This document shows positions 11,899 to 33,803 of a DNA stretch of 64,000 bases, piece by piece. This stretch comes from Minisyncoccota bacterium (GTDB lineage: Bacteria; Patescibacteriota; Minisyncoccia; Phycocordibacterales; Phycocordibacteraceae), in assembly GCA_018062765.1 (NCBI GenBank), contig JAGORR010000001.1, positions 356,930 through 420,929 of the forward strand, given 5' to 3'. The position numbers were made by a program, and so were the translations under genes. The notes beneath the pieces are model-generated. The model saw only the letters and a list, made by a program, of their open reading frames with translations. It made no database searches and had not been told where the DNA came from. Numbering within the stretch: the stretch's first letter is position 1; the number at the start of each line of letters is the position of its first letter.

Positions 11899-11927
11899 AT
11901 TATACACCACAGCCCACACAATGTCAA
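11899..11927 (-). promoter_or_regulatory. consensus sigma70 promoter of the SPFH operon (TTGACA-17 nt-TATAAT)
   Basis: Minus strand reads cTTGACAttgtgtgggctgtggtgTATAATac. RBS AGGAGGG lies before ATG 11860. Confidence 0.7.
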
Positions 11928-11974: not shown

Positions 11975-12128
11975 TGCTGGGGGAGGGCTTGGTCAGGCGC
12001 TCATTCGTCGCCGTCGCTCCTCACTCCGCCTGACCACCCTCGCGTGACAGACTTTGCTAAGTCTGTAGACCGCGCTCGGTTTCAAGTCTCCACCCCATGC
12101 CATTGCGGCTGCTTGCGCAGCCTTTATG
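11975..12128 (-). repeat. tRNA-trailer structured element, copy A (distal to tRNA-Leu-TAG)
   Basis: In tRNA orientation the order is:
- hairpin GGCTGC-gcaa-GCAGCC
- GGAGACTTGAA, antisense to the tRNA T-arm
- ACAGACTT-AGCA-AAGTCTGT
- GGTCAGGCG..(GAGTGAGG..GACG loop)..CGCCTGACC
- CAAGCCCTCCCCCAGCA, mimicking the tRNA 3' end. Confidence 0.8.
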
Positions 12129-12282
12129 TGCTGGGGAGGGCTTGGCGAAGCGTCTGCCGATCGTCGTCACTCCCGGCTCCGCTCGGCCCTGCTCGCACGA
12201 CACGGCGTGCTCGCCGCGTAGACCGTGCTTGCGTTCAAGTCTCCACCCATGCCTCTGCGCCAGGCTTGTGTCTGGTTACGTG
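12129..12282 (-). repeat. tRNA-trailer structured element, copy B (adjacent to tRNA-Leu-TAG)
   Basis: Also 154 nt. In tRNA orientation the order is:
- GCCT-ggcgcag-AGGC
- GGAGACTTGAAC
- ACGCGGCG-AGCA-CGCCGTGT
- GCCG-gGAGTGACGACGat-CGGC
- CCAAGCCCTCCCCAGCA. Confidence 0.8.
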
Positions 12283-12416: not shown

Positions 12417-12489
12417 CTCAGTTGGTAGAGCAGATCCCTCTTAAGGATAAGGTCCCTGGTTCGAGCCCAGGTAGGCGCACTAACACGAA
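12417..12489 (+). tRNA. tRNA-Lys (anticodon CTT)
   Basis: Hand-folded. Acceptor GCGCCTA/TAGGCGC. Anticodon loop CTCTTAA. T arm CCTGG-TTCGAGC-CCAGG. Confidence 0.9.
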
Positions 12490-12639
12490 AAAGTCCTGGT
12501 CTGCACCAGGACTTTTCGGTTAGTGCGCGACGGAACCATGTTTTGCGAGCGCGCAAAACCGGTGAGCCAGGGTCGTAGCCTGAAGTGAGTGTCGACGAGC
12601 TTCAGGGCTATGACCACGTGCGAGGCACAGCGATGTTTT
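12490..12639 (+). repeat. tRNA-trailer structured element after tRNA-Lys
   Basis: Order:
- terminator-like H1 AAAAGTCCTGGT-ctgc-ACCAGGACTTTT
- TGCGCgaCGGAACCA (antisense-like to the tRNA 3' end)
- GTTTTGCG-AGCG-CGCAAAAC
- GGTCGTAGCCTGAAG-tgAGTGTCGACGag-CTTCAGGGCTATGACC
- ..GAGGCACA (compare tRNA end TAGGCGCA). Confidence 0.65.
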
Positions 12640-12725
12640 GTCTGCAGATAAAACCACGAGCCGGGATAGCGGAATTTCATGAATAATGACTAATGAAATA
12701 TCCGTGACCACAAATTGCAAAACGT

Positions 12726-13810: not shown

Positions 13811-13950
13811 CAAATTGGACGCGCAGCGTCTAATAGCGGGAATTGAAGGCCGTAGCTATATCGTGCGAGCACGCACGATTGCGAGGCGGGGTCACGAATA
13901 AGGTCTGCTCGACGGAGCAGACCTTATTCGTGACCAGTACCGCTCTGTCT
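13811..13950 (+). repeat. tRNA-trailer structured element after tRNA-Cys
   Basis: Order:
- GACG-cgcag-CGTC
- AGCGGGAATTGAA, an exact antisense of the tRNA-Cys segment TTCAATTCCCGCT
- ATCGTGCG-AGCA-CGCACGAT
- 20-bp hairpin GTCACGAATAAGGTCTGCTC-GACG-GAGCAGACCTTATTCGTGAC
- CAGTACCGCTCTGTCT (compare tRNA CAATTCCCGCTCGGGCCT). Confidence 0.75.
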
Positions 13951-22138: not shown

Positions 22139-22239
22139 TGCGGCTCCCAGGTGGTCACAAATACTTCCGCGTCGACACTTGGAAGTTTCGCGACCCCGCC
22201 AAAAAGGAAAAACCTGGAGCAGTCCAGGTTTTTCCTTTT
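22139..22239 (-). repeat. tRNA-trailer structured element after tRNA-Trp (short form, no AGCA hairpin)
   Basis: In tRNA orientation the order is:
- GGAAAAACCTGGA-ctgc-TCCAGGTTTTTCC then TTTTT
- TGGCGGGG (antisense to tRNA end GCCCGCCA)
- GGTC..CTTCC-aAGTGTCGACGc-GGAAG..GACC
- ACCTGGGAGCCGCA (compare tRNA CTACTGGGCCCGCCA). Confidence 0.65.
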
Positions 22240-22313
22240 TGGCGGGCCCAGTAGGAATCGGACCTACGCTAACGGTTTTGGAGACCGTTGTACTACCACT
22301 ATACGATGGACCC
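22240..22313 (-). tRNA. tRNA-Trp (anticodon CCA), CCA end encoded
   Basis: Hand-folded. Acceptor GGGTCCA/TGGGCCC. Anticodon arm ACGGT-cTCCAaa-ACCGT. T arm GTAGG-TCCGATT-CCTAC. Confidence 0.88.
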
Positions 22314-28115: not shown

Positions 28116-28196
28116 GCCGGGGTGGCGAAATGGTAAACGCAGAGGATTCAAAACCCTCCGCCGCAAGGCTTGAGAGTTCAAGTCTCTCCCCCGGCA
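28116..28196 (+). tRNA. tRNA-Leu (anticodon CAA)
   Basis: Hand-folded. Acceptor GCCGGGG/CCCCGGC. Anticodon loop TTCAAAA with an A-C mismatch closing the stem. Long variable arm. T arm GAGAG-TTCAAGT-CTCTC. Confidence 0.88.
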
Positions 28197-28362
28197 CAAA
28201 GCGCGAAGCGCGCATGGTCGGGGAGTACCCTGCCTGCGCAGGGTACGTGAGAGACTTGAACGCCGGAGCGATGATTCGTCAGCAGACGAATCCGCGAGGC
28301 AAGGCTATGAAAATTCTCGAGTGACGGCGAGAGAATTATTCCTGGCCAAGCCTTCCCCGGCA
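28197..28362 (+). repeat. tRNA-trailer structured element, copy 1 after tRNA-Leu-CAA
   Basis: Order:
- TACCCTG-cctgcg-CAGGGTA
- GAGAGACTTGAAC, a 13-nt exact antisense of the tRNA T-arm
- GATTCGTC-AGCA-GACGAATC
- AATTCTC-gAGTGACGGCg-GAGAATT
- CCAAGCCTTCCCCGGCA (mimic). Confidence 0.8.
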
Positions 28363-28509
28363 CATGAAGCACGCGCAGCGTGCGAAGGGCTCGTGGGTGG
28401 GACTTGAACGCCGGAGCGATGCTTCATCAGCAGATGAAGCCGTGAGCTGGGGTCGCGGAAAATGCCATGTGACGACATGGCATTTATTCGCGACCAAGCC
28501 ACCCCGGCA
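28363..28509 (+). repeat. tRNA-trailer structured element, copy 2 after tRNA-Leu-CAA
   Basis: Order:
- GCACG-cgcag-CGTGC
- GGGTGGGACTTGAAC
- GCTTCATC-AGCA-GATGAAGC
- GGTCGCG..AAATGCCATGT-GACG-ACATGGCATTT..CGCGACC
- AAGCCACCCCGGCA. Confidence 0.8.
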
Positions 28510-28555
28510 CGTGACAAATATGTTGCGCGCATAAGCGCATGCTAAAATCCTTCAC

Positions 28556-31373: not shown

Positions 31374-33803
31374 TTACTTGAGGTATTCGAGTGCCTCGAC
31401 AACAGAAAGCGAGTGAGGAGAAACGCTTTCGGGAATGTAGATGCGCCGCAGACCCTTCTTAAGGAAATGACCCTGCTTTGACTTATAGAGAATGACTGTC
31501 TTTCCGGTGCGCGGATGCTTACCCAGTTCCTTCATGCTCTCAACGCCGCGTGGCGGCTTCTTCGGCTCCTTGATGAGCGCGAGCGCGTGCTCGAGAGTGA
31601 TTGTATAAGGGTCCAGAGGCGCCTTTAACGAACGAAACTCGCCATCATGGACTACGAACGGGCCGAATCGACCGACTCCCGACGAAATCATCTTCCCGGT
31701 GTCGGGGTTCACGCCAAGTTCTCGCGGAAGCGATAGCCACTTCACCGCGTCGGCAAGGGTGATGGTAGCGAGGTCAGTTCCAGGAGGGACGCTGGCGCGC
31801 TTCGCTTCAATCTTCACCTTCTTAGGTTTTTTGGCTCGCGCCGGTTTCTTCGCTGCTTTTCTCTTCTTGGGTTTCTCTTCTTCCTTGGGCTCCTCAGTCA
31901 GGCTGTCAGCTACCAGCTCTGAGCTAACAGCTTGTTTCAATGGCATCTCCACATACGGGCCGAAGCGTCCGGTTTTGATGTATACGGGCATCCCGGTGTC
32001 CGGGTGCGTGCCGATAGGCTCATCCGGACGTATCTCGGTTCCATCCTCGCCGCGCGCACCTTCGCACTCCGGGTAGCGCTTGCAGCTCATGAATACACCA
32101 CCACGCCCGAGCTTGAATTCCATCGCGCTCTCACAGTCAGGGCAATGGAACTTCTCAGGGACGTCACCCAGCGAAGTCGCTTTCGGCAGATCCTCCTTCG
32201 CATCGACCGCTTTCCTGAACGGCTTATAGAATTCCGCGAGCGTCTTCTCGTACTCGCGTTCGCCGCGCGCTATCTCGTCGAGCTCGTCCTCCATCTCAGC
32301 CGTGAATGAATCGCTGATGTACTCGGCAAAATGCTCCTCGAGCCACCCCGACACCACCATGCCGGTAGCCGTAGGCATCAAGGTACGTCCTTCCTTGAGA
32401 GCATACTCGCGGTCCTGGATTGTCTTCATGATGGACGCGTACGTCGATGGGCGGCCGATGCCGCGCTTCTCAAGCTCCTTCACAAGCCCTGCCTCGGTGT
32501 AGCGGTTGGGCGGCTCCGTCTGCTTCTCGGTCCCTTCGAGAGACTTCAACTCGACGACCTCTCCCTCAGCGAGCTTCGGAAGCTCCACGTCCTCACCGCG
32601 CGCTTTGGTGTCGAGCGCGAGCCATCCAGGGAAGGTAACGCGGGAGCCGTTCGCGGTAAACGCAGGTACACCCGGCGTCGCAACCGATACGCTCGTGCGC
32701 AACACCTTGGCTGCTGCCATCTGGCTCGCAAGCGCACGCGTACGGATGAGCTCATAGAGATTCGCCTCATCGGTCGTCGAGCCGGCTTTCTCGCGCGCAG
32801 GGTCAGTCGGGCGCACTGCCTCGTGCGCTTCCTGAGCATTCTTCGACTTGGTCTTGTATTCCCGACGGTCGACGTACTCCTTGCCGAACTTCCTCTCGAC
32901 GATGCTGAGTATCGCGTTTACGGCATCCTTGCCTAGATTCACGGAGTCCGTGCGCATGTAGGTGATGTGACCGGCTTCATAGAGCTTCTGCGCGGCGCGC
33001 ATGGTGCGTGATGGCGAGAATCCGAGACGCGTAGAAGCAACCTGTTGCAGGGTGGAGGTCGTGAACGGCGGACGGGGATTACGATCCTCCGCACGCTCTA
33101 CGACCTTTGCGACAGACCATGCGCCTGCCTTGCCTGCAGCCAGGAGCTTGTCCGCTTCCTCGCGTGTCTTCGGCTCTTCGGAACAGGTCGCGGAGAATTC
33201 CCCGCTCTTCGCCTTGAAAAGTGCGGAGAGCACGAAATACGTCACCGGAACGAATGCCTGGATCTCGCGCTCGCGCTCGGCGAGTATGCGAAGCGCAGGG
33301 GACTGCACGCGGCCGGCGGAGAGCCCGTAGCGCACTTTCTTCCAGATAAGGCCCGAGAGGTCGTACCCCACGATGCGGTCGAGGACGCGGCGCGCCTCCT
33401 GCGCCTTTCTGAGGTCCTCATCTATATGGCGCGGGTGCGTAAGCGCTTCCTCAATGGCCGCCTTGGTGATCTCATGGAATACGACGCGCTTAGGGTGTTT
33501 CAGTCCAACCGCCTCCTTTATATGCCACGAGATGGCCTCGCCCTCGCGATCGGGGTCGGTCGCAAGGTATATCTCATCCGCCTTCGCAGCAGCCCGTCTG
33601 ATGCGTTCGATAACGTCGAGCTTTCCAGGGGAAATGATGTAGTGAGGACGGAATCCCTTCTCGATATCTATAGCGTTCTTGTCGCTTTTCGGGAGGTCAC
33701 GCACGTGACCCACGGAGGCAAGCACCTCGTATTCCTTACCGAGGTACTGCTGTATGGTGCGCGCTTTCGCGGGCGACTCGACTATGAGCAGCTTCTTCGC
33801 CAT
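31374..33803 (-). CDS. topA: DNA topoisomerase I
   Basis: 809 aa. Toprim start LLIVESPAKARTI. Catalytic region includes GHITYMRTDS. C-terminal zinc-ribbon motifs (CPDCES..C, CKRYPEC). Confidence 0.96.
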   Translation of the reverse strand: MAKKLLIVESPAKARTIQQYLGKEYEVLASVGHVRDLPKSDKNAIDIEKGFRPHYIISPGKLDVIERIRRAAAKADEIYLATDPDREGEAISWHIKEAVGLKHPKRVVFHEITKAAIEEALTHPRHIDEDLRKAQEARRVLDRIVGYDLSGLIWKKVRYGLSAGRVQSPALRILAEREREIQAFVPVTYFVLSALFKAKSGEFSATCSEEPKTREEADKLLAAGKAGAWSVAKVVERAEDRNPRPPFTTSTLQQVASTRLGFSPSRTMRAAQKLYEAGHITYMRTDSVNLGKDAVNAILSIVERKFGKEYVDRREYKTKSKNAQEAHEAVRPTDPAREKAGSTTDEANLYELIRTRALASQMAAAKVLRTSVSVATPGVPAFTANGSRVTFPGWLALDTKARGEDVELPKLAEGEVVELKSLEGTEKQTEPPNRYTEAGLVKELEKRGIGRPSTYASIMKTIQDREYALKEGRTLMPTATGMVVSGWLEEHFAEYISDSFTAEMEDELDEIARGEREYEKTLAEFYKPFRKAVDAKEDLPKATSLGDVPEKFHCPDCESAMEFKLGRGGVFMSCKRYPECEGARGEDGTEIRPDEPIGTHPDTGMPVYIKTGRFGPYVEMPLKQAVSSELVADSLTEEPKEEEKPKKRKAAKKPARAKKPKKVKIEAKRASVPPGTDLATITLADAVKWLSLPRELGVNPDTGKMISSGVGRFGPFVVHDGEFRSLKAPLDPYTITLEHALALIKEPKKPPRGVESMKELGKHPRTGKTVILYKSKQGHFLKKGLRRIYIPESVSPHSLSVVEALEYLK

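Follow-up and report, generated by a model that had tools for sequence, protein, structure and literature searches.

In a 64,000-nt stretch of a Minisyncoccota genome (contig JAGORR010000001.1, positions 356,930 to 420,929; hereafter the window), the gene for tRNA-Leu(CAA) is followed by two tandem structured sequences, which we call unit 1 and unit 2. We found these units to be members of a large and apparently undescribed family of folded sequences, about 110-170 bases long, in the Candidate Phyla Radiation (CPR, or Patescibacteria). Our favoured reading, to which we give a probability of about 0.5, is that the units are small (110-170 nt), non-autonomous, structured integrative elements that occupy the 3' ends of genes, above all of tRNA genes. 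The units fold on the sense strand of the gene, carry a repeat of the gene end with a fixed start and contain an antisense block complementary to the cognate gene. They also turn over at a given site, form arrays and are associated with replacement of the gene's 3' end. An earlier note, made from the letters alone, had described the pair as trailer elements tuned to the CAA isoacceptor.

Both units share one order of parts. We refer to the 3' segment of the tRNA as a, to the antisense block as a', and to the helix formed by a' and the right-end copy of a as P1. The features behind tRNA-Leu(CAA), all on the plus strand, are as follows.

28116-28196/7, plus strand: tRNA-Leu(CAA) (ARAGORN; Rfam tRNA, 55.3 bits; sequence)
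T54 (28177) to discriminator A (28196), plus strand: target segment a of the tRNA (sequence)
28198-28363, plus strand: unit 1 as a whole
28198-28248, plus strand: unit 1 left arm, with a small hairpin at 28201-28213, a block GGTCGGGGAG at 28216-28225, and H1 (sequence)
28226-28245, plus strand: unit 1 H1, TACCCTGC-CTGC-GCAGGGTA, 8 bp with a CTGC loop (sequence)
28249-28261, plus strand: guide-like antisense block of unit 1, GAGAGACTTGAAC, aligned to positions 1-13 of the covariance model and forming the 5' strand of P1
28262-28300, plus strand: unit 1 H2 module, GCC-GGA-GCG/CGC-GA-GGC around a purine-rich internal loop (covariance model)
28273-28292, plus strand: unit 1 8-bp AGCA hairpin, GATTCGTC-AGCA-GACGAATC, within the H2 module
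28303-28347, plus strand: unit 1 H3, a long hairpin with the apical part CGAG-TGACG-GCGAG (tandem G.A pairs, GACG-type loop; covariance model, folding, helix 4 covariation)
28346-28362, plus strand: unit 1 end CCAAGCCTTCCCCGGCA
28347-28362, plus strand: right end of unit 1, CAAGCCTTCCCCGGCA, which directly repeats the tRNA between C56 and the discriminator in diverged form and is the 3' strand of P1
28364-28510, plus strand: unit 2 as a whole
28364-28394, plus strand: unit 2 left arm, with H1 at 28369-28383 (sequence)
28395-28409, plus strand: unit 2 antisense block GGGTGGGACTTGAAC, pairing with its own right end (CCACCC; covariance model, folding)
28410-28448, plus strand: H2 module of unit 2, containing the AGCA hairpin (28421-28440; covariance model)
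28451-28495, plus strand: unit 2 H3, GGTCGCGG...TGACGA...CGCGACC (covariance model, folding)
28494-28509, plus strand: unit 2 end CCAAGCCACCCCGGCA
28495-28509, plus strand: right end of unit 2, CAAGCCACCCCGGCA, directly repeating a tRNA-Leu(CAA) 3' end

Every motif listed in the earlier note was found where it had been placed, and the 13-mer, AGCA and folding statistics put these motifs far beyond chance. The unit 1 block GAGAGACTTGAAC complements the T arm at 28176-28188 (T54 to C65 and one further base) in all 13 of 13 positions. This 13-mer occurs in the whole window at 28249 and, on the other strand, at the T arm itself, and nowhere else; allowing up to one mismatch gave three matches against a chance expectation of 0.16. 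The left-arm block GGTCGGGGAG is an imperfect complement of the acceptor 3' strand. Folding-energy z-scores on the plus strand were -5.6 for unit 1 and -7.05 for unit 2. Exactly five 8-bp stems with an AGCA loop occur in the window, as had been claimed; each lies within a unit on the strand of the adjacent tRNA and all five stem sequences differ, while shuffled sequence gave about 1.7 stems even at 6 bp or more. The H1 hairpin of unit 1 is also present, but its earlier parse, a shorter stem around a six-base loop, gives way to 8 bp around CTGC. Both units close with CCAAGCC..CCCCGGCA, in which CCAAGCC begins with the last base of H3 and continues with C56-A-A-G, a C in place of T, and a final C.

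To search for relatives, we used a covariance model, R1, built from 26 metagenome units only and containing no window sequence. Its E-values are rough, as the calibration was shortened. R1 found eight matches in the window, each immediately 3' of a tRNA gene and on its strand; the E-values range from 8e-25 to 3e-06. Inspection of the sequence after each tRNA gene likewise revealed related modules at Cys, Lys (two) and Trp. Units 1 and 2 scored best, and we conclude that they are real, structured and non-random, as the earlier note had supposed. Of the eight tRNA genes in the window, five are followed by one or two units (Leu-CAA two, Leu-TAG two, Lys two, Cys one and Trp one). The members are listed below.

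28198-28510, plus strand: units 1 and 2 behind tRNA-Leu(CAA), R1 E = 8e-25 and 9e-23
12135-12246 and 11982-12093, minus strand: two members behind tRNA-Leu(TAG), R1 E = 6.5e-10 and 5.2e-08
13835-13944, plus strand: a member behind tRNA-Cys, with a block GCGGGAATTGAA complementary to the Cys T arm, R1 E = 3.1e-19
12515-12711, plus strand: two members behind tRNA-Lys(CTT), in the layout called type B below, R1 E = 4.5e-13 and 4.4e-11
22146-22253, minus strand: a reduced member behind tRNA-Trp, consisting of a palindrome plus H3, R1 E = 3.2e-06

The earlier count of five elements in the window was therefore too low, and tandem duplication, which had been put forward as a trait shared by the Leu loci, also occurs behind Lys. 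Since the eight units follow five tRNA genes, including those for Lys and Trp, neither the tandem layout nor the elements are specific to Leu.

Outside the window, R1 gave 125 matches in 100 other loci (handles of the form L001 denote loci outside the window, with or without a unit). The nearest tRNA lay upstream on the same strand for 87 of the 125 and upstream on the opposite strand for none. Similarly, a target-independent signature, CGGAGCGATG-N7-AGCA-N9-GYGAG, retrieved at least 120 metagenome loci. Among the matches listed, the stem pairs at 6 or more of 8 positions in 116 of 123, and a same-strand tRNA lies within 700 nt upstream in 83, with at least 33 different anticodons represented. 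The metagenome sample was drawn with one sequence signature and so over-represents one subfamily. Because the same type of element stands behind 33 anticodons and some protein genes, we no longer regard the Leu pair as a trailer tuned to an isoacceptor. When 185,579 species genomes were scanned with a DNA pattern, 39 sites matched, of which only four had the hairpin. All four lie in CPR genomes (two Saccharibacteria, one Nomurabacteria and one Kaiserbacteria) with a unit directly behind a tRNA-Leu gene. The narrow host range is drawn from these species-genome matches. The window itself, to judge from its proteins, belongs to Paceibacterota/Parcubacteria within the CPR. In viral contigs, the Leu-type pattern matched 58 times, never with the hairpin and hence by chance, and the general signature gave no match; no unit was matched in the phage and plasmid record collections. 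At the gathering thresholds of Rfam 15, only tRNAs passed, so that self-cleaving ribozymes, T-box, tmRNA and Y-RNA-like families are not supported. With permissive E-values, the best non-tRNA match was far below threshold (CRISPR-DR28 on H1, 22.6 against 35 bits), and the others were miRNA and plastid noise. Full-text literature searches gave no description of such elements, and the stem-loops mentioned in one CPR paper are unrelated.

From an alignment of 26 sequences, we propose that the units fold as a three-way junction of P1, an H2 arm and an H3 arm. P1 joins a' to the right-end copy of a. The H2 arm consists of GCC-GGA-GCG/CGC-GA-GGC with its purine-rich internal loop, enclosing the 8-bp AGCA hairpin, and the H3 arm has a conserved bulged A, tandem G.A pairs and a GACG-type loop. 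Standard pairs fill 88.1% of the paired cells, compared with 69.6% after shuffling and 32.3-44.0% when partners were slid by one to three columns. The covariation score was 0.543, against 0.19 for shuffled alignments (0 of 500 reached the observed value) and at most 0.14 for slid partners, and 24 of 33 pairs changed on both sides. For the H2 stem, this covariation is unbiased, because the stem positions were free in the search pattern. Among 79 distinct H2 stems, G:T and T:G pairs outnumbered A:C and C:A pairs by 20 to 1. A bias of this direction indicates that the fold is selected on the tRNA-sense strand, as a single strand of either RNA or DNA.

The architecture varies in several respects. 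Three loci (L143, L159 and L213) have extra modules between H2 and H3, among them a second hairpin bracketed by CGGAG...CGAGG and an H3 variant with an AGCA loop, which suggests a modular, expandable architecture. H1-type hairpins with a CTGC loop stand at the same position in many metagenome units. The CTGC tetraloop is very common beside tRNA genes, both in the H1 hairpins of the window (28226-28245, 12494-12510 and 22207-22225) and at many metagenome loci, with examples such as GCCAA-CTGC-TTGGC and CCCGC-CTGC-GCGGG. Three structural candidates were set aside. A pseudo-tRNA or permuted tRNA on the minus strand has no 5' strand for its T stem, and the plus strand is the one that the G:T bias favours. 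By eye, a kink-turn at the GGA/GA internal loop would have a bulge of 1 nt instead of 3 and is not claimed, and a likeness of H2 to group II domain V fails on the side of the bulge, the helix lengths and the loop.

We then considered how the units relate to the tRNA. In the common layout, segment a is followed by a variable left arm (L0) with H1, block a', the H2 module, H3 and a second copy of a, after which the original downstream DNA resumes. For 18 units the right-end repeat begins at C56, for most others no more than a few bases away, and it usually stops at the tRNA 3' end. As at att sites, the repeat is co-oriented with the tRNA and covers its 3' part from the T loop to the end. This direct repeat accounts for what the earlier note had read as a designed acceptor mimic: duplication alone makes the copy match the respective tRNA, and the repeat runs 26 to about 70 nt past the tRNA in L003 and L077. 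In L003, the perfect 36-nt repeat comprises 10 nt of tRNA and 26 nt of downstream DNA, and in L077 the repeats measure about 59 and 88 nt by eye and reach into a truncated second unit. L001, a near-identical strain with an identical ParB, has a C-to-T change in the acceptor-like end of unit 1 at window position 28355 (CCTTCCTCGGCA vs CCTTCCCCGGCA), so the copy is not strictly constrained.

The antisense block matches the adjacent tRNA, as the earlier note had proposed: of 13 positions in the cognate T loop and T stem, it pairs with 11.2 across 46 independent units. Pairing at 9 or more of 10 positions was found in 43% of cognate against 14% of non-cognate pairings. The block fits the tRNA better than its own right end in 17 units, and the opposite holds in three. 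Its near-invariant GAA end pairs with T54-T55-C56, while the right copy lacks the two T's, which argues that the block is matched to the intact T loop; a' reaches back to T54 throughout the common layout. Some blocks span 17-19 nt up to the discriminator, and that of L075 is a 19/19 complement reaching the acceptor end. In geometry only, the a':a helix reproduces the base pairs of the T stem, and in some units of the acceptor stem, with the discriminator on the 3' side. A subclass of blocks (in L110, L123, L133, L148, L150, L157, L180, L187 and L218) reads ..A(T/C/G/A)GAGAA instead of ..ATTCGAA, placing a tandem G.A/A.G mismatch opposite the T loop in place of two Watson-Crick pairs. The same swap from Watson-Crick to G.A pairs occurs in H2 and H3 stems.

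Unit 2 does not fit the tRNA it stands behind. Its block GGGTGGGACTTGAAC complements, at 15/15 positions, the tRNA-Leu(CAA) allele found in the relative L223 (T stem GTGGG/CCCAC), and it does not match the window's own T stem, GAGAG/CTCTC. Tuning to the resident tRNA, the earlier reading, fails here. To judge from these alleles, the block keeps a former or foreign target sequence that was not re-tuned, and it records history, not tuning in the present. T-stem alleles at this site differ among relatives, being CTCTC, CCCAC or accompanied by a TTCGATT-type loop.

A second layout, type B, includes the Lys and Trp units of the window. Here a terminator-like palindrome that contains the last bases of the tRNA is followed by H2 and H3, and few bases are repeated. 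In the regions of tRNA-Lys(CTT) (12481-12711, plus strand) and tRNA-Trp (22146-22253, minus strand), the palindromes are long, include the last 6-7 tRNA bases and consist of an A run, a CTGC-loop stem and a T run, so that they look like bidirectional terminators. After the palindrome, H2 and H3 occur twice behind Lys and H3 occurs alone behind Trp.

Occupancy of a single site differs among close relatives. At the tRNA-Leu(CAA)/parB site, the window has two units, L003 and L102 have one each, and L002, L004 and L223-L228 have none. The single unit of L003 (ParB 77% identical) has an H2 stem nearly like that of unit 1, and L002 (ParB 81% identical) lacks a unit and has a possible 8-nt vestige, CTTTGAAC, after a hairpin. 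In the seven loci L004 and L223-L228, the tRNA lies on the opposite strand. The gene, between the ahpC/pyrF side and parB, is found on opposite strands among close relatives, and the locus is often rearranged. With zero, one or two units at the same site, an essential role is not supported. Units also form arrays, with three identical tandem copies in L152. Further, the most similar cores (up to 93% identical) lie at different tRNAs in different contigs and differ in block and right end, which calls for transfer between sites in addition to local duplication.

Two kinds of locus bear on 3'-end replacement. At the tRNA-Trp gene of L003, a unit separates the tRNA from a further copy of its 3' end. 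An encoded CCA and the native terminator palindrome are still present in this right copy; the left one, proximal to the tRNA, has no encoded CCA. On this arrangement of sequence, the left copy looks element-borne. The second case is a protein gene, topA, whose 3' end (the region coding for the C-terminal zinc ribbon) holds a unit in six metagenome loci (L154, L159, L193, L206, L209 and L215). After the gene end, these loci contain H1, a block that complements the beginning of the duplicated segment, H2 and H3, and then the last ~20 codons in a second copy. In L193, L206, L209 and L215, this second copy is diverged but alignable, and the right copy still encodes KTIPERCSNKxCPNHNPHK. Codons that differ synonymously outnumber those that change the amino acid by 11:3, 17:7, 10:2 and 13:2, respectively, a pattern that neutral decay of a target-site duplication would not yield. 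A native end displaced to the right would account both for the right copy at tRNA-Trp and for the topA ends with their mostly synonymous differences. The topA gene of the window (31374-33803, minus strand) is without a unit.

Larger islands occur beside units in two loci. In L191 (1414-7995), tRNA-Glu(CTC), a unit and a tRNA-end copy are followed by a 6.2-kb island, a 98%-identical unit and another tRNA-end copy. The island encodes a PemK/MazF-like toxin and a DinG/XPD-like helicase, and we found no recombinase domain in it. In L176 (498-7480), tRNA-Glu is followed by an island with a 504-aa large serine recombinase and a rolling-circle Rep (REP_ORF2-G2P/RepSA-like), after which the tRNA 3' end recurs in diverged form, together with an array of units. 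The serine recombinase is part of this separate island and is not linked to the elements.

A potential model for integrative elements of this kind is that the folded single strand, with a' paired to a in P1, would recombine with the target at the left edge of a, which in tRNAs is T55/C56. The element would bring its own copy of the gene's 3' end and displace the native end to the right, and the gene would stay intact because of the copy supplied. The regenerated target would allow further insertion or local duplication, giving tandem pairs such as units 1 and 2. The enzyme is assumed to act in trans. The T loop would make an ideal and safe target, as it is present and nearly invariant in every genome. 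We tentatively extend this model to a nucleic-acid-guided mobile element. A core of about 100 nt, bound by an enzyme of the host or of the element, would use a' to pair with the sense strand of its target, carry a replacement 3' end and spread harmlessly and horizontally among CPR genomes, and as a trailer RNA it may also interact with the cognate tRNA. As its target it would take the universally conserved T loop of tRNAs together with the T stem, or else any short stretch close to a gene end. We see a substantial chance, if well below even, that this targeting principle is new.

Several observations weigh against integrative elements. No recombinase, transposase or reverse transcriptase was linked to the units among 20 open reading frames (19 distinct) tested in neighbouring islands, which gave only the unrelated serine recombinase and rolling-circle Rep in one neighbouring island; at 110-170 nt, the units themselves hold no open reading frame and encode no integrase. 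[quoted passage not shown] Long-term conservation of the fold with compensatory changes would also be expected of an RNA that serves the host. The empty site of L002 may be a deletion scar, with CTTTGAAC as the vestige. Repeat lengths range from about 4 to 88 nt and several arrays end in a truncated unit, which fits local tandem duplication. Finally, the block of unit 1 matches the tRNA on its left and that of unit 2 its own right end, and because the two blocks match different sides, no single simple insertion order explains both units.

The main rival is that the units are host-functional structured RNAs derived from tRNA 3' trailers, which we consider rather unlikely on its own. Here the block would have as its partner either the upstream tRNA's 3' half or the unit's own tRNA-like end, the latter pairing forming a replica of the acceptor/T-stem minihelix. 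RNase Z and the CCA-adding enzyme could release such units, which would then act on the cognate tRNA through control of maturation, sequestration or protection. The strand-specific, covarying fold is as expected of RNA, the block is cognate-specific down to the complement of T54-T55 and sometimes extends over 17-19 nt to the discriminator, and units of one genome have diverged as paralogous RNA genes do. Their position in the window also fits: the units come after the tRNA and before the next promoter, and no terminator-like site separates them from the tRNA, so that they are probably co-transcribed with it. Between 27950 and 28650, we found no convincing intrinsic terminator between tRNA and units or at the unit ends, the calls being the apical stem of H3 (on both strands) and one minus-strand hairpin at 28524-28539. 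By eye, a terminator-like hairpin with a T run follows the array in L087 and, behind Leu-TAA, in L077. However, the same core stands behind protein genes such as topA, a tRNA gene holds anywhere from none to two units among close relatives, and unit 2 fits a tRNA allele absent from its genome. Type B cores lie downstream of terminator-like hairpins with T runs, with 6 of 25 passing a strict test, one too strict to inform. Unless mobility is added, trailer RNAs also offer no mechanism for reaching 33 tRNAs or for the synonymous differences at topA. The two readings are not mutually exclusive: transcription of a mobile element together with the tRNA is quite possible, and an RNA-level role of the units may exist beside mobility. 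A perfect sigma-70 consensus promoter (TTGACA, 17 nt, TATAAT) lies at window positions 11899-11927 on the minus strand, directly after the Leu-TAG array and before the next gene.

We find it improbable that the units are extragenic palindromes like REP (repetitive extragenic palindromic) sequences and BIMEs (bacterial interspersed mosaic elements), or unusual terminators, which would stabilise or terminate transcripts, spread by local duplication and match the tRNA as a by-product of duplications that include the tRNA end. Their modular make-up would suit this explanation (H3 alone at Trp, H2 and H3 at Lys, extra modules in L143, L159 and L213), as would arrays closing with truncated copies, the three identical copies in L152 and the resemblance of H1 hairpins to terminators. 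It does not predict a repeat start fixed at C56, an antisense block that reaches T54-T55 beyond the repeat, synonymous differences between topA end copies, or nearly identical cores (up to 93%) behind different tRNAs of separate contigs. That the units are inert attL/attR scars of deleted integrase-encoding islands, as raised in the earlier note, is very improbable and largely refuted by covariation: the repeats are att-like, beginning in the T loop as at classical integrase sites, and real islands occupy the same sites in L176 and L191, but scars would decay, whereas the units keep their fold across many hosts and targets (24 of 33 pairs with compensatory changes, 88% of cells paired), with conserved AGCA and GACG loops, a strand bias and an identical compact architecture at more than 120 loci.

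The closest known systems are integrative elements that use tRNA 3' ends, with sublocations in the T loop, or protein genes, such as phage 21 and e14 at icd, which carry their own diverged copy of the end of the target gene. Among their derivatives are cis-mobilizable elements (CIMEs), which are flanked by att sites and lack an integrase. The units resemble these elements in co-orientation with the gene, a boundary on the crossover side in the T loop, a repeat to the gene's 3' end, a replacement 3' end with a synonymously diverged displaced end, and tandem accretion at a regenerated site. They differ in their length of 110-170 nt, the absence of integrase and excisionase genes, a covarying single-strand fold in place of protein arm sites, an internal block complementary to the target, and the service of dozens of targets by one type of core.

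Two further systems act through folded single strands. Like integron attC sites, the units conserve structure over sequence, fold strand-specifically, form arrays and occasionally hold cargo (L191), and the complementary ends R'' and R' of attC correspond to a' and a, the outer one being the target core. In contrast to attC, the units, inspected by eye, have no RYYYAAC/GTTRRRY boxes: ..CTTGAAC or ..TTCGAA closes the left block, and CAAG.. or CGAAT.. opens the right end. Their paired ends vary with the target, which is a gene 3' end and not attI, and they form a three-way junction rather than a single imperfect hairpin. No intI was seen in the loci examined. Miniature derivatives of IS200/IS605 and the REP/RAYT system share with the units hairpins on one strand, internal guide pairing, small non-autonomous copies and an orientation tied to the strand. 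Compared with IS200/IS605, the guides are 9-19 nt instead of 4 nt, a target repeat is present instead of absent and the conserved motifs are unrelated. Neither TnpA nor RAYT was found in the loci examined, no genome-wide search having been made.

An internal segment complementary to the target also sets the location of class C group II introns and of elements with IS110 bridge RNAs, and class C introns, like type B units, insert behind terminator hairpins. The units, however, lack ribozyme domains, an Rfam match, an intron-encoded protein and a DEDD recombinase, and their end is a copy of the target. With MITEs they share small size, non-autonomy, ends resembling inverted repeats (a' and a) and flanking repeats. 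Unlike MITEs, they have target-derived ends, long and variable repeats (about 4 to 88 nt), highly diverged copies within a genome and a strictly fixed orientation; we found no element-specific terminal repeats, short fixed duplication or near-identical genomic copies of the MITE kind.

Taken together, we conclude that the units are a recurrent feature of CPR genomes, which are tiny, and that annotation pipelines and Rfam have left this feature unrecognised. Under either of the two leading readings, the covariance model R1 annotates the units directly, and the topA case offers a natural marker of horizontal transfer. Should the units function at the RNA level, they would be trailers that mimic a specific tRNA or are antisense to it, in hosts with minimal RNA-processing machinery. 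If they are mobile, they would be among the smallest known elements to replace the 3' end of their target, with specificity that apparently resides in a short complementary block and not in a protein, which would bear on gene flow in CPR bacteria and would be of interest to tool builders.

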